From: a virus
Taxonomy: Duplodnaviria > Heunggongvirae > Uroviricota > Caudoviricetes
Virus record (IMG/VR): IMGVR_UViG_2690315922_000002
Span: 1-5,209 of that record
Strand: one strand, 5' to 3'
DNA: 5,209 nt
Part shown: positions 3,421 through 5,209 of the stretch, piece by piece
How positions within the stretch are numbered: the first letter of the stretch is position 1
Layout: each line of letters opens with the position of its first letter
Program-made: the position numbers and the translations under genes
The notes under the pieces: model-generated
Told to the model about the DNA's origin: nothing
The model's database searches: none
What the model saw: only the letters and a program-made list of their open reading frames with translations

Positions 3421-3605
3421 ACGCCACAATTCAAACGATACCAGAGCTTCTTATCCAGACACGAGGCAATCAGACCGAAGTGGCGAGGATGCTTTCCTGC
3501 GCAAGAGGAACAGTGCTCAAGTACAACCGAGACAGCAAAGGCGAGCGTCACGTAATAGTTAACGGCGTCCTGATGGTCAAACAGGGCAAAAGGGGAAGGC
3601 CATGA
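3417..3605 (+). CDS. ninH: NinH-like small DNA-binding protein
   Basis: 62-aa translation (TIPELLIQTRGNQTEVARMLSCARGTVLKYNRDSKGERHVIVNGVLMV) matches lambda NinH as recalled (TIPDML...GNQTEVARRL.CSRGTVRKY...VLMV); contains a helix-turn-helix-like segment. ATGA overlaps with rusA and Q. Confidence 0.75.
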   Translation: MNATIQTIPELLIQTRGNQTEVARMLSCARGTVLKYNRDSKGERHVIVNGVLMVKQGKRGRP

Positions 3606-4225
3606 GACTCGAAAGCGTAGCTAAATTTCATTCGCCAAAAAGCCCGATGATGAGCGACTCACCACGGGCTACGGCTTCTGACTTTCTTTCCGGTACTGAT
3701 GTGATGGCTGCTATGGGGATGGCGCAATCACAAGCCGGATTCGGAATGGCTGCATTCTGTGGTAAGCACGAACTCAGCCAGAGCGACAAACAAAAGGCTA
3801 TCAACTATCTGATGCAATTTGCACACAAGGTATCGGGGAAATACCGTGGTGTGGCAAAGCTTGAAGGAAATACTAAGGCAAAGGTACTGCAAGTGCTCGC
3901 AACATTCGCTTATGCGGATTATTGCCGTAGTGCCGCGACGCCGGGCGCAAGATGCAGAGATTGCCACGGTACAGGCCGTGCGGTTGATATATCAAAAACA
4001 GAGCAATTGGGGAGAGTTGTTGAGAAAGAGTGCGGAAGATGCAAAGGCGTCGGCTATTCAAGAATGCCAGCAAGCGCAGCATATCGCGCTGTGACGATGC
4101 TAATCCCAAACCTTACCCAACCCACCTGGTCACGCACTGTTAAGCCGCTGTATGACGCTCTGGTGGTGCAATGCCACAAGGAAGAGTCAATCGCAGATAA
4201 CATTTTGAACGAGGTCACACGTTAG
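3602..4225 (+). CDS. Q: Late-gene antitermination protein Q (lambda-type Q)
   Basis: 207-aa ORF, the same length as lambda Q. The translation (MRLESVAKFHSPKSPMMSDSPRATASD...CRDCHGTGRAVD...CGRCKGVGYSR...) agrees with lambda Q as I recall it almost residue for residue, including the zinc-binding cysteine cluster. Followed by a pR'-type promoter. Confidence 0.9.
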   Translation: MRLESVAKFHSPKSPMMSDSPRATASDFLSGTDVMAAMGMAQSQAGFGMAAFCGKHELSQSDKQKAINYLMQFAHKVSGKYRGVAKLEGNTKAKVLQVLATFAYADYCRSAATPGARCRDCHGTGRAVDISKTEQLGRVVEKECGRCKGVGYSRMPASAAYRAVTMLIPNLTQPTWSRTVKPLYDALVVQCHKEESIADNILNEVTR

Positions 4226-4267
4226 CAGCATGATTGCCACGGATGGCAACATATTAACGGCATAATA

Positions 4268-4310
4268 TTGACTGTTTGAATAAAGTTGGGTAAATTTGAC
4301 CCAAGAATGG
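4268..4310 (+). promoter_or_regulatory. Late promoter pR' with overlapping qut (Q-utilisation) region
   Basis: TTGACT (4268-4273), 17-bp spacer, TAAATT (4291-4296), then TGACCC and a -10-like AAGAAT (4303-4308) at the position of the lambda pause-inducing element (AACGAT in lambda as recalled). The sequence differs from the lambda pR' region as recalled at only a few positions up to 4310. Confidence 0.7.
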
Positions 4311-4496
4311 CAGATTTATATCCGTTCACATTCTTTCAGCTTTTACCCACCTCATCTTTAAGTTCTAAGCGCACTGACATGCGCATCATAAACTCGAGAG
4401 CACATAGGAATAGAGCCTGAGAAATATCGCTTTTGGCGACTTCTCTCGTGGTGATATTTCTATGTCAGCAGGCTCTAATATCTATGTGGTTCGCCT

Positions 4497-4661
4497 ATGT
4501 TAAAACGTGAAGATGCATTGAGACTTTTTAATTACAATCCAGATACTGGAATTCTTACATGGAGGATTCATGTAGGGTGTTTTGACGATATCGAGGAGGC
4601 TAGAAAGGCAATGGAAAATGCCAGAATAAAATATCATGGTGAATTCTCCAGTATGGGATAG
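4497..4661 (+). pseudogene. Remnant of an HNH/AP2-type homing endonuclease gene (54-codon in-frame fusion of the N-terminal and C-terminal ends)
   Basis: Translation MLKREDALRLFNYNPDTGILTWRIHVGCFDDIEEARKAMENARIKYHGEFSSMG. The N-terminal Y-x-P-D/E-T-G-x-L/F-T-W motif and the C-terminal AP2-like G-x-F-x-x-x-E-E-A...A-x-x-K-Y-H-G-E-F are both present, but the roughly 100-residue HNH catalytic core between them is absent. No convincing Shine-Dalgarno sequence. Not in the ORF track because it is under 60 aa. Confidence 0.55.
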
Positions 4662-4663
4662 AT

Positions 4664-4780
4664 GGGGTAATTCGCTCGTTGTGGTAGTGAGATGAAAAAA
4701 GGCGGCGCTTTACTACCGATTCCGCCTAGTTGGTCACTTCGACGTATCGTCTGGAACTCCAACCATCGCGGGCTGAGAGG
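4664..4780 (+). other. Segment homologous to the 5' part of the lambda pR' transcript (6S RNA / late leader), displaced about 355 bp downstream of its promoter
   Basis: ATGGGGTAATTCGCTCGTTGTGGTAGTGAGATGAAAAAAGGCGGCGCTTTACTACCGATTCCGCCTAGTTGGTCACTTCGACGTATCGTCTGGAACTCCAACCATCGC... agrees with the lambda sequence just downstream of pR' as recalled. Resemblance ends near 4780; the lambda tR' hairpin (GCCTGCATAACGGTTTCGGGATTTTTT) is not present. Confidence 0.5.
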
Positions 4781-4821
4781 TTTGCAAATATTGACGCAAT
4801 AAAGTTGCTAATGTGGTAACT

Positions 4822-4848
4822 AATACCCCGTATCTCTGTGTGGGTATT
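4822..4848. terminator. Weak hairpin, possible bidirectional terminator (end of antisense ORF; possible tR' substitute on + strand)
   Basis: AATACCC (4822-4828) / GGGTATT (4842-4848), 7-bp stem with a 13-nt loop, followed on + by TAATTATTTC and on - by a modest T-rich tail. AT-rich stem, so predicted stability is low. Confidence 0.3.
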
Positions 4849-4851
4849 TAA

Positions 4852-5031
4852 TTATTTCAATAGTTCCTGAAATTCAGCGACTAGATCCGCATGTCTTTTC
4901 ATTAGTGGTGTGATAAGACTTTTCTTGTTTTCATCAGAGTGCGTTGACATGGCTATTTGCAAGGTTTTATCAGAGATCTCTTGAAGTAACATATGGATTG
5001 CGTGGAGCCTTCTTGTGTCAAAGTCATTCAT
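4852..5031 (-). CDS. Small hypothetical protein (59 aa), antisense to the late transcript; family not recognised
   Basis: Minus-strand ORF hand-translated as MNDFDTRRLHAIHMLLQEISDKTLQIAMSTHSDENKKSLITPLMKRHADLVAEFQELLK. The ATG (complement of 5029-5031) is preceded on the minus strand by AAGAAGGA about 10 nt upstream; stop is the complement of 4852-4854. Below the 60-aa cutoff of the ORF track. Lies in an AT-rich segment with no resemblance to lambda. Confidence 0.4.
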   Translation of the reverse strand: MNDFDTRRLHAIHMLLQEISDKTLQIAMSTHSDENKKSLITPLMKRHADLVAEFQELLK

Positions 5032-5209
5032 TTGTGTTTAATCCTTCTTTATATGAATGACAACATTAGCACAACATTTCTGAAATGCATAACCAACCAA
5101 ACACAAAGCATACAAAACAATCACCTTATCCGCTGTGGTACGGTGCGGTGTTCTTTGCATAAAAGAAAACCAGCGCAATGGCTGGCTTCGTGAAAGCGGG
5201 TGGCAAGAG

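Follow-up and report, generated by a model that had tools for sequence, protein, structure and literature searches.

The 5,209-nt stretch of viral DNA analysed here (the window) most probably carries a decayed accessory-gene cassette in the leader of a Q-dependent late operon, in which the leader RNA has stayed intact. The cassette lies in a block of extra DNA between the late promoter pR' and the 6S leader, and this block consists of three parts, namely the distal portion of an alternative ('B-type') 5' leader, a 124-nt structured RNA and an internally deleted HNH-AP2 nuclease gene. The 5' to 3' layout is Q, pR', a B-type hairpin, the 124-nt pseudoknotted RNA, the HNH-AP2 gene and the 6S leader from +5, made up of the following features.

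3602-4225, plus strand: Q antiterminator gene, lambda type, 207 aa (Pfam Antiterm PF03589, E = 3e-55; 201 of 207 residues identical to lambda Q)
4268-4296, plus strand: late promoter pR' (promoter scan, 9 of 12 matches; near-identical to lambda pR')
4303-4335, plus strand: 5' end of the late transcript, with the pause element AAGAAT (4303-4308) and a 5'-terminal hairpin
4311-4665, plus strand: block absent from lambda-type leaders (355 bp here; 682 bp with an intact nuclease gene)
4367-4490, plus strand: conserved structured leader RNA (covariance model R1, 131.8 bits, E = 5e-32)
4497-4661, plus strand: HNH-AP2 nuclease remnant, 54 codons (alignment to the intact 163-aa gene of L001)
4662-4789, plus strand: lambda-type 6S leader homologue, starting at lambda +5, without its own promoter (alignment A1 and megablast)
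4827-4854, plus strand: candidate terminator in place of lambda tR', with stem CCCGTATCTCTGTGTGGG followed by a T-rich tail (terminator scan)

Results

Extra DNA between pR' and the 6S leader

The initial annotation had described an insertion of about 353 bp (4311-4663) in the initial transcribed region of pR', and compared with lambda the insertion is real. Alignment with lambda gave homology on the left through ATGG at 4307-4310, with AAGAAT for AACGAT and TGACCC for TGACTC as differences in this flank, and homology resumed on the right with (G)ATGG at 4661-4665, confirming that the two flanks are genuine homologues of pR' and of the 6S leader. The proposed start at 4311 was retained and corresponds to +9, in agreement with a breakpoint near +8, where +1 = A4303 was assigned through lambda homology in the numbering of PMC9191641. 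The end, however, had to be moved, as the DNA that lambda lacks extends over 4311-4665 (355 bp, that is 351 bp and one ATGG copy). Similarly, the left of the two ATGG copies noted at the junctions is at 4307-4310 as described, whereas the right copy is 4662-4665, since 4664-4667 reads GGGG. From the sequences, the two copies are best explained as the common end of the homologous leader 5' ends AAGAAUGG and AACGAUGG rather than as the short duplication that had been considered. A target-site duplication left by a transposable element was rejected for the same reason, and no transposase is present.

Megablast of window positions 4200-4810 against 50,697 phage records gave 107 matches, including lambda, HK446, HK630 and Kapi1, and the flanks are contiguous in each match listed (query 1-589 corresponding to 233 bp of the record). 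None of these records covered 80% or more of the query, and the insert alone matched none of the 50,697, even by blastn at word size 11. The Q-pR' region was present in 1,215 of 5,426 complete E. coli genomes, 16 of which carry extra DNA at the insertion point. The insert therefore recurs at the same site, as the initial annotation had thought worth checking, but in complete E. coli genomes and in none of the phage records, and at 16 of 1,215 the arrangement is not the common, uninterrupted form among its relatives. Nor is the block anonymous DNA, the alternative leader, the conserved structured RNA and the HNH-AP2 gene with its internal deletion having been missed at first. Downstream of it, the lambda 6S leader sequence extends from +5 to about +132; the window then diverges from lambda at about 4790, before tR', the lambda sequence of which is absent, and the terminator-like hairpin found by the scan occupies 4827-4844.

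A decayed nuclease gene and its intact relatives

The 54-codon remnant itself gave no Pfam match. Its intact relatives contain HNH_3 (E = 5.7e-17) and AP2 domains, and an intact 163-aa HNH_3 plus AP2 gene (protein WP_000919140.1) is found at the same site in the 16 complete E. coli genomes; E. coli JNE131328 is one carrier of the intact form. In the window, a 327-bp in-frame deletion with its junction at 4562/4563 (one base ambiguous) lies between the short imperfect repeats ATGGAAGAATCC and ATGGTAAAAGGATTC, and residues 23-131 are missing, comprising all of HNH_3 (55-97) and the first half of AP2. The nuclease of the window is dead, since the deletion removed the HNH catalytic core and half of AP2, and the leader RNA was left untouched. 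At least 19 contigs contain this deleted form with an identical 54-aa remnant, which starts 272 nt after the Q stop codon in 10 of 10 places shown. The nin and packaging modules differ among these contigs; the Q-to-leader module (3591-5209) displays 99.2-99.9% identity in seven of eight loci and, in the eighth, 98.3% over a longer stretch. More distant nuclease homologues (86, 74, 66 and 62% identity), one of which is in Xenorhabdus bovienii, are all located 247-271 nt downstream of Q genes that differ in length. The 86% homologue has the same joint of nuclease stop codon to GATG of the lambda-type leader, suggesting that the composite arrangement is old. A protein-based scan for the nuclease in one genome per species found nothing. 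An internal sigma-70 promoter for the cassette was rejected, as there was no conserved candidate and the sole scan match fell inside the ORF.

The domain architecture raises another explanation, possible but rather unlikely in our view, in which a free-standing homing endonuclease gene invaded a lambda-type leader by homing and the window represents decay after fixation; the nuclease would cut the uninterrupted AACGATGGGTTAATTCG site in competing phages and insert itself together with co-converted AAGAAT and B leader. HNH_3 plus AP2 is typical of phage homing endonucleases, and 3,810 phage records contain tblastn relatives, often more than one in a genome, with many annotated as homing endonucleases. 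The presence or absence of the gene at one precise site in otherwise near-identical Q modules, the independent decay products (the 327-bp deletion, 112-aa truncations and HNH-less remnants) and the occurrence of other HNH_3 genes at intergenic sites in the same prophages are also consistent with homing. However, the same nuclease lineage follows Q genes of unrelated length, and a sequence-specific target fits poorly with this distribution because the leaders behind these Q genes share almost no sequence. The arrangement has moreover co-diverged with its flanks in the 86% homologue, and cleavage and homing are predicted activities. Finally, the leader RNA is common to nuclease and non-nuclease cargo (Rha, KilA-N and P22_AR_N), so that the mobile or exchangeable unit looks like the leader RNA plus a gene, and we prefer to regard the segment as a decayed accessory-gene cassette. 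The present arrangement may have arisen either by insertion into a lambda-type leader or by a B-type leader with its cassette acquiring a lambda-type leader downstream.

Late promoter, pause element and B-type leader

The Q gene is intact and its product is 97% identical to lambda Q. In pR', the -35 element TTGACT (4268-4273) and the -10 element TAAATT (4291-4296) are separated by a 17-nt spacer, which holds the putative Q-binding element by lambda homology and shows three differences from lambda, two of which are also present in uninterrupted relatives. The -35-like element upstream of the pause element reads TTGACC, compared to TTGACT in lambda. The -10-like pause element AAGAAT (+1 to +6, 4303-4308) shows A and T at positions 2 and 6, respectively, and agrees with TATAAT in four of six positions, compared to three of six for lambda AACGAT. 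The scrunched pause has the consensus T+14 N Y+16 G+17 (T-N-Y-G; PMC9191641). As anticipated in the initial annotation, the pause-site sequence is changed, with +14 to +17 reading TTAT (4316-4319); T14 is kept and Y16-G17 are lost, which may alter the strength of pausing. The discriminator-like GGG of the initial transcribed sequence has also become GGC.

AAGAAT had been viewed as a lambda element with new downstream DNA. In the MFE fold, however, AAGAAUG (4303-4309) pairs with CAUUCUU (4329-4335; +27 to +33) to form the 5' hairpin, and pattern comparison found AAGAAT only together with the B-type leader, the combination of AAGAAT with the lambda leader having no match in IMG/VR. Judged from these patterns, AAGAAT is a component of an incoming B-type leader, not a mutated lambda element facing foreign DNA. 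The possibility that the lambda-type leader is a recent deletion derivative of the cassette form was rejected because it predicts this same AAGAAT-lambda leader joint. HNH-less B leaders were likewise rejected as a simple empty site, as all that they retain of the structured RNA is its 5' half, joined to the 3' arm of tR'; with this partial RNA and covariance-model scores of 30-35 bits as internally deleted remnants, they are deletion derivatives. They share SNPs (CGGTTTTTT) missing from the nuclease-bearing forms, and most of them also have a 46-nt terminator-like block that is not found in those forms. By these markers, the HNH-less B leaders are sister lineages rather than direct descendants of the nuclease-bearing forms.

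The same transcribed sequence follows the same Q and pR' in 16 E. coli genomes, at least 19 deleted-form contigs and 20 IMG/VR contigs, and its carriers have different phage backbones with complete lysis and packaging genes. IS66 insertions were observed in or near the packaging genes of some carriers, so some of these prophages are defective.

An alternative in which the insertion disables late control, either by blocking Q loading or by bringing in new terminators or structure, and the window is a fragment of a dead prophage, appears improbable. The loss of Y16-G17, the divergence from lambda before tR' and the IS66 insertions could be read in its favour, as could the lack of the cassette at pR' among the isolated phages in the 50,697 records; this absence is weak evidence because only about 1.4 occurrences are expected from the E. 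coli frequency. Against this alternative, Q is intact, the promoter, Q-binding region and -35-like and -10-like elements are conserved, the transcribed sequence is common to dozens of prophages in which the holin, endolysin, spanin, terminase and portal genes are intact, and it has been exchanged between backbones as a 99%-identical module. In addition, the scan detected no terminator-like site from +1 to the nuclease start codon. Since no known loading determinant lies beyond the upstream side of the junction and many prophages use this transcribed sequence, Q would still load, and the comparative evidence favours working over defective Q loading, the two outcomes that the initial annotation had set side by side.

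A conserved structured leader RNA

The 124-nt RNA (4367-4490) folds with -50.1 kcal/mol (z = -4.45) and consists of the following elements.

4368-4383, plus strand: hp1, with its loop at 4373-4379
4394-4399 and 4442-4447, plus strand: a and a', a long-range pairing
4400-4418 and 4468-4487, plus strand: 5' and 3' strands of helix P1
4419-4429 and 4449-4460, plus strand: 5' and 3' strands of helix P2
4461-4467, plus strand: bulge, partner of the hp1 loop

The window copy contains hp1, the long P1/P2 hairpin and both long-range pairings (hp1 loop/bulge, CUGACAU/AUGUCAG; a/a', CGAGAG/CUCUCG) directly 5' of the ribosome-binding site. In the alignment of the family, 99.2% of cells are paired, and compensatory changes were present in every helix but hp1, which varies on one side only. 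Both long-range pairings covary, with at least five loop/bulge variants (CUGACAU/AUGUCAG, CUGACGU/ACGUCAG, UCUCA/UGAGA, UCGCA/UGCGA, CCGCA/UGCGG and UUCACC/GGUGAA) and at least eight a/a' variants. These were counted by our own script, as the short tertiary segments are out of register in the MAFFT alignment of all family types (A6); the shuffle test for these segments preserves composition and is conservative, giving single-type P values of only 0.002-0.3. As exceptions, the loop/bulge match of one family member (L102) is weak and some Stx2a copies lack hp1. An alternative c-d hairpin was rejected, having no covariation support. The covariance model scored 118-149 bits on the plus strand versus 14-28 bits on the minus strand, and many G-U pairs are compatible with the plus strand alone. 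The Shine-Dalgarno sequence lies in the base of P1. Of 16 representatives, 10 showed the a-a' pairing in the nascent-transcript MFE, and it was absent from all full-length nested folds; as it is topologically incompatible with a zipped P1, the fully zipped P1 and a-a' would be alternative states.

In phi80, Stx2a phages and phages of Hafnia, Klebsiella, Pantoea and Salmonella, diverged full-length copies (47-64 bits) immediately precede rha, KilA-N or P22_AR_N genes, and the RNA is also found before HNH genes, including that of the Xenorhabdus copy. In all cases it has the orientation of the late transcript and adjoins the ribosome-binding site, and it flanks exchangeable cargo genes at three different late-operon positions. 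A pattern scan of metagenomes returned mostly chance matches. The conserved RNA follows a terminator, suggesting that the cargo is expressed by read-through from the Q-modified late transcript. No credible match was obtained with Rfam 15 (4,227 models, E <= 1-10) on the window, the intact cassette, the L001 rha-type copy and the Xenorhabdus copy, and no published leader RNA of rha or antirepressor genes was found in the searchable literature. The RNA is strongly conserved and apparently undescribed so far.

The element might instead act as DNA, as an attC-like recombination site or an operator for IHF or the cargo proteins, which we consider very unlikely. It does flank exchangeable cargo at three positions and contains long imperfect inverted repeats, and in 1995 rha expression was reportedly linked to IHF. 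However, many of the conserved G-U pairs would turn into A-C mismatches if read from the opposite strand, the covariance model favours the plus strand by about 100 bits, and the covarying long-range pairings cross the main hairpin, which duplex DNA would not need; the constant late-transcript orientation next to a ribosome-binding site also argues for RNA.

A self-splicing intron or self-cleaving ribozyme cassette, excised to restore a lambda-like leader, is hardly credible. Group I introns often host HNH genes, and the leader that holds the insert is transcribed and non-coding. Genes in prophages can be flanked by hammerheads (PMC3088659). On the other hand, the group I/II intron, hammerhead, other ribozyme, HEARO and C4/IsrK/sar models gave no credible Rfam match on the four copies, hammerhead core motifs were absent on inspection, the nuclease ORF extends right up to the right junction (0 nt between them) with no 3' intron core behind it, and the same RNA precedes genes at ordinary intergenic positions.

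Discussion

With the segment taken as a decayed accessory-gene cassette, the Q-binding element, the -35-like TTGACC and the -10-like AAGAAT are all intact upstream of the junction, and the deletion between imperfect repeats killed the nuclease and spared the leader RNA. With the Shine-Dalgarno sequence in the base of P1 and the a-a' pairing as its alternative, the structured RNA may gate translation of the gene behind it. As a tentative extension, which we hold to be less likely than not, the 124-nt leader may represent a new cis-regulatory RNA class of lambdoid phages, a two-fold switch that gates the translation of 'conflict' genes, which encode antirepressor-like Rha, KilA-N and P22_AR proteins or HNH nucleases. 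A fully zipped hairpin would bury the Shine-Dalgarno sequence, as opposed to a docked fold stabilised by the loop-bulge and a-a' pairings, and the input could be a ligand, a protein or the speed of the Q-modified RNA polymerase. In the pR' leader, where the usual upstream terminator is missing, the leader RNA would also be made constitutively in lysogens.

The lambda pR'-qut-6S region is a textbook system for sigma-dependent pausing and Q loading. The window resembles it in Q, in the -35, the -10, the Q-binding spacer and the -35-like TTGAC(C/T), in a -10-like element that spans +1 to +6 with GG behind it, and in a 5' hairpin that involves the pause element. It differs in that the transcribed sequence is replaced from +9, the pause element is separated from the 6S leader by 355 bp (682 bp in the intact form) that include a gene, and the tR' hairpin is replaced. 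StxS and lambda 6S RNA are short constitutive pR' transcripts made without Q and ended at tR'; unlike them, the Q-independent transcript predicted here would be about 540 nt long, compared to the 194-nt 6S RNA, and would contain the structured element and the remnant ORF; for the intact form the predicted length is about 870 nt.

Similar to free-standing phage HNH (HNH_3 plus AP2) genes, the cassette shows the same architecture in its intact relatives, an intergenic place, sporadic presence and decay by deletion. In contrast to them, this lineage follows late promoters of different Q types and has a conserved structured 5' leader shared with non-nuclease genes, and the window copy lacks the catalytic domain. 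The units also recall phage morons and the Bro/KilA-N/Rha/Ant shuffling set, being optional terminator-bounded gene units between essential late genes with cargo from the Rha, KilA-N, P22_AR_N/ORF11CD3 and HNH families; unlike morons, they have no conserved promoter of their own and instead a leader RNA behind the terminator.

Control at the RNA level before antirepressor-type genes is known from the P1/P7 c4 antisense RNA and icd/ant (immI), the P4 CI RNA and P22 sar-ant; in these systems a stem-loop region upstream base-pairs with leader sequence further downstream through two short complementary segments. The element described here likewise stands before antirepressor-type genes and has two such short pairings. 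It differs, however, in showing no match to Rfam C4, IsrK or sar, in having both pairing partners in one compact leader with the target segments in a hairpin bulge and an apical loop rather than over the ribosome-binding site, and in its location in late operons instead of immunity regions.

The window thus provides a naturally occurring variant, which retains all sequence upstream of +8 and has all downstream sequence exchanged, for testing how far Q depends on the pause-site sequence. It also identifies the late-promoter leader as a niche for accessory genes, where a nuclease gene inserted after pR' and ahead of the terminator would be transcribed in lysogens even without Q. The control of accessory late genes is poorly understood, and a covariation-supported RNA, absent from Rfam and the searchable literature, before rha, antirepressor and nuclease genes of many lambdoid phages, those of Shiga-toxin phages included, may offer a handle on it.

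The late promoter carries an insertion relative to lambda

The 5.2-kb window is the nin-Q-late-leader portion of a lambdoid prophage, encoding NinB, a Dam-type methylase, NinE, DUF1364, RusA, NinH and a Q of lambda type. Of the 88 bases that separate the Q stop codon from the end of +8 of pR', just seven are not the same as in lambda (+1 is A4303, following the lambda PR' numbering of PMC9191641).

Features of the late-control region
3602-4225: lambda-type Q gene, 201/207 identity to lambda Q
4291-4296: -10 element TAAATT
4303-4308: -10-like pause element AAGAAT
4497-4661: nuclease remnant ORF, the 163-aa gene minus residues 23-131, in frame

The initial annotation had proposed an insertion here relative to lambda, and database comparison bears it out. 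When 4200-4810 was compared by megablast with 50,697 phage genomes, 107 records matched, and the flanks are contiguous in each of the 30 listed (query 1-589 corresponds to 233 bp of record). The region was found in 1,215 of 5,426 complete E. coli genomes, only 16 of which have extra DNA at the insertion point. The intervening sequence gave no match in the 50,697 phage genomes, even at blastn sensitivity. Alignment to lambda ended the left homology at ATGG 4307-4310, as annotated, and the right homology at ATGG 4662-4665, two bases off the annotated 4664-4667. The block with no lambda counterpart is 4311-4665 (355 bp), with its first base at +9.

Beyond the leader, the hairpin 4827-4844 could act as a bidirectional terminator. 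A 59-aa ORF (4852-5031, minus strand), convergent with the late transcript, sits in sequence replacing the lambda tR'-to-S upstream region; the annotation of E. coli 2013C-4991 lists it as hypothetical, gene calling also returned it at several loci, and its only match, to FliG_C, is weak and sub-threshold. In several related prophages (L001:5982-6137, L004 and L005), the stretch from tR' to the holin gene contains genes for tRNA-Asn and tRNA-Thr; in the window this ORF region takes their place.

A decayed nuclease gene linked to late promoters

The 16 E. coli genomes contain the insert sequence of the window plus 327 more bases, which makes about 680 bp in total (682 if one ATGG copy is counted). 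The annotated product is a 163-aa HNH endonuclease (WP_000919140.1) with Pfam domains HNH_3 (residues 55-97) and AP2 (residues 108-157). Loss of residues 23-131, with the break situated between imperfect repeats ATGGAAGAATCC and ATGGTAAAAGGATTC, leaves nothing of the HNH motif and only half of AP2. The remnant ORF gave no Pfam match, and the nuclease of the window is therefore dead. The deletion also made a new inverted repeat at 4553-4577 (TCTTACATGG AGG ATTCATGTAGGG, followed by TGTTTTG), rated terminator-like by the scan and probably an accident of the junction.

The identical 54-aa product occurs on at least 19 contigs, its ORF starting 272 nt past the Q stop codon in all 10 places shown. 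Prophages with the deleted form differ in their nin regions and packaging modules (lambda Nu1/A, Terminase_2/6N, or HNH plus Terminase_4). Seven of eight compared loci are 99.2-99.9% identical over the 3591-5209 block, and the eighth is 98.3% identical across a longer stretch, whereas the flanking sequences vary from locus to locus. The Q-to-leader module is therefore swapped between prophages as one piece, and it is evidently tolerated.

Relatives of the intact nuclease at 86, 74, 66 and 62% identity, one of them from Xenorhabdus bovienii, each lie 247-271 nt downstream of a Q gene, the Q proteins having 254 to 276 residues, plus one cut by a contig end at 193 aa. The nuclease lineage is tied to late promoters. 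The stop codon of the 86% relative abuts GATG of a diverged lambda-type leader, as in the window, so the composite of nuclease gene and lambda-type leader is old and has diverged in place. The wider phage collection holds thousands of relatives at ≤47% identity, many annotated as homing endonucleases and frequently several per genome. HNH_3 genes also take up further intergenic positions in the same prophages, which are riddled with them: L006 has one in the NinE/NinG gap (L006:5304-5870), and E. coli GF131 (H91) has three 'HNH endonuclease' genes within the nin-Q region.

Alternative late leaders meet at a mosaic boundary

In three genomes of E. coli and eight contigs of IMG/VR, the same pR' is followed at once by the initial ~110 bases of the insert, and a nuclease gene is absent (B-type leaders). 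AAGAAT was seen solely together with B-type sequence, and a scan of IMG/VR for the lambda leader preceded by AAGAAT gave no match. The pairing partner of AAGAAUG is CAUUCUU (+27 to +33); in lambda, AACGA and UCGUU form the equivalent pair. Strain 2013C-4991 has yet another, third leader type, which comes after AACGATGG. Hence +8/+9 is a mosaic boundary, with all that Q loading needs to its left and variable sequence to its right. The left part of the insert is itself another late leader, and each ATGG copy is best taken as the conserved end of one of two homologous leader starts.

By eye, in every late leader inspected (lambda, L003, window 4303-4335 and L036-L040), a hairpin at the 5' terminus has the -10-like pause element as its 5' strand, and the opposite strand changes along with it: AACGA/UCGUU (lambda, L003), AAGAAUG/CAUUCUU (B type), GGGAGA/UCUCCC, GCUGGGAG/CUCCCAGC, AAUGC/GCAUU and AAUGA/UCAUU.

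HNH-less B leaders keep the small hairpin hp1, segment a and the 5' strand of helix P1 of the leader RNA described below as far as AGAGCCTG, and then continue into the tR' 3' arm. They score 30-35 bits with the covariance model, as internally deleted remnants; a deletion between two repeats, AGAGCCTG in P1 and TAGAGCCTG in lambda tR', explains them. They have a CGGTTTTTT variant in common, and most carry a 46-nt terminator-like block exactly at the terminator position of other family members; they therefore derive from an older form with terminator, RNA and nuclease. From today's E. coli form with the nuclease, that terminator appears to have been lost. The block, a GC-rich hairpin and T run (GTGACTGCTCCCCGCCCTGTCGGGCGAGGGTTTACGGCGTTTTTCG), stands immediately before hp1 in the HNH-less B2 leaders (L005:2956-3001, L020-L022, L026, L032, L034 and L035), at the position of the conserved terminator (CCTCGCnTTnGCGGGGCTTTTTAT) of rha-type and Xenorhabdus copies.

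A leader RNA shared by several cargo genes

The ~130 nt 5' of the nuclease start codon are better conserved than the nuclease protein. Pattern scans found the same RNA element in 13 Xenorhabdus species and viral contigs, between endolysin and Rz/Rz1 genes and right after an intrinsic terminator, with varying genes behind it: Rha (PF09669), P22_AR_N plus ORF11CD3, HNH_3 and, in one probably rearranged locus, an Acb2/Tad1-like gene. In that locus (Xenorhabdus beddingii, L061:1145-1517) the RNA directly precedes an 80-aa Acb2/Tad1-hairpin-domain gene, of an anti-CBASS/anti-Thoeris sponge family; as this gene lies after Rz/Rz1 in sister loci, cargo and spanin genes have probably been deleted.

The covariance model also picked up full-length copies that have diverged, most scoring 47-64 bits and two 29-30. 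In E. coli prophages these lie directly 5' of rha or KilA-N genes that come after the lysis genes; others are in phi80, in Stx2a-converting phages and in phages of Hafnia, Klebsiella, Pantoea and Salmonella. With blastn alone, this diverged type was found in 152 phage records. The phi80 record annotates there solely the terminator preceding the RNA. Two copies occur in one Stx2a phage, the first between R and Rz ahead of a P22_AR_N-type gene and the second after Rz ahead of a rha-like gene (Stx2a copies: L099:645-770 and 2011-2136; L100:1511-1625). A deletion between GCGCAT repeats has removed hp1 from the second copy in a large set of Stx2a phages. Rfam 15 gave no credible match for any version of the element, and a literature search found no description of it.

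Classical homing of the nuclease gene is a possible explanation for the insert, but it fits poorly with both the differing Q-type leaders and a leader RNA shared with other genes.

Expected consequences for late control

The scrunched paused complex has the consensus T+14 N Y+16 G+17 (PMC9191641), which lambda fits perfectly. As the initial annotation anticipated, the pause-site sequence is altered: +14 to +17 of the window read TTAT, retaining T14 and losing Y16-G17, and the GGG behind the pause element reads GGC. Pause capture or lifetime may hence be lower. Q loading should persist given the retained Q, promoter, Q-binding spacer, and -35-like and -10-like elements, and this leader occurs widely in prophages whose late genes are complete, which argues for its sufficiency. 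On both counts, a dead late-control region is less likely.

Structure and proposed working of the leader RNA

RNAalifold of 22 distinct copies gave hp1 and a long bipartite hairpin (P1/P2). Two crossing pairings, of the hp1 loop with the bulge between P2 and P1 and of the 6-7-nt segment a with the apical loop (a'), give 99.2% paired cells when added; in slid controls the paired share drops to 33-50%. Compensatory changes occur at eight pairs, four of these within a-a'. A competing local hairpin within the element found no support. A covariance model made from the nested helices only scored the modelled copies at 118-149 bits on the plus strand vs 14-28 bits on the minus strand, and the tertiary pairs outside the model change together in diverged copies.

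Crossing pairs
Loop/bulge: CUGACAU/AUGUCAG, CUGACGU/ACGUCAG, UCUCA/UGAGA, UCGCA/UGCGA, CCGCA/UGCGG, UUCACC/GGUGAA
a/a': CGAGAG/CUCUCG, CAUGAG/CUCAUG, CACGAG/CUCGUG, CUGAGAG/CUCUCAG, UCAUGA/UCAUGA, CCCGAG/CUCGGG, CCACCGA/UCGGUGG, CACAGAA/UUCUGUG

Exceptions are a poor loop/bulge match in one Klebsiella copy and the missing hp1 of some Stx2a copies. Composition-preserving shuffles were weak for single types and consistent across types. The intact loci have exactly the same RNA sequence as the window (4367-4490), where the fold has -50.1 kcal/mol (z = -4.45). A function at the DNA level is contradicted by the strand-specific G-U pairs and the covariation of the crossing pairs, and an intron or ribozyme has no support.

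The terminator scan found no terminator-like site from +1 to the nuclease start codon, so constitutive pR' transcription would pass the RNA element, then the remnant ORF and the lambda-type leader, and reach the hairpin 4827-4844; in intact forms, the nuclease gene would be transcribed in lysogens. The Shine-Dalgarno sequence lies in the P1 base, opposite a CCUU/CUUA stretch directly 3' of segment a. Fully stacked P1 and P2 would put the apical loop out of reach of segment a, yet both P1 and a-a' covary, so alternative states are the best reading. Folding of the nascent RNA puts the a-a' pairing in the MFE structure of 10 of 16 representatives; no nested full-length fold contains it. Together, these features suggest a translational gate, which could be set by a ligand, a protein or transcription kinetics.

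The finding is real. The insert in the window belongs to a recognisable class, that of accessory nuclease genes in phage intergenic regions, and has already decayed; its location in the pR' initial transcribed region is unusual and informative. The newest content of the finding is the conserved leader RNA.
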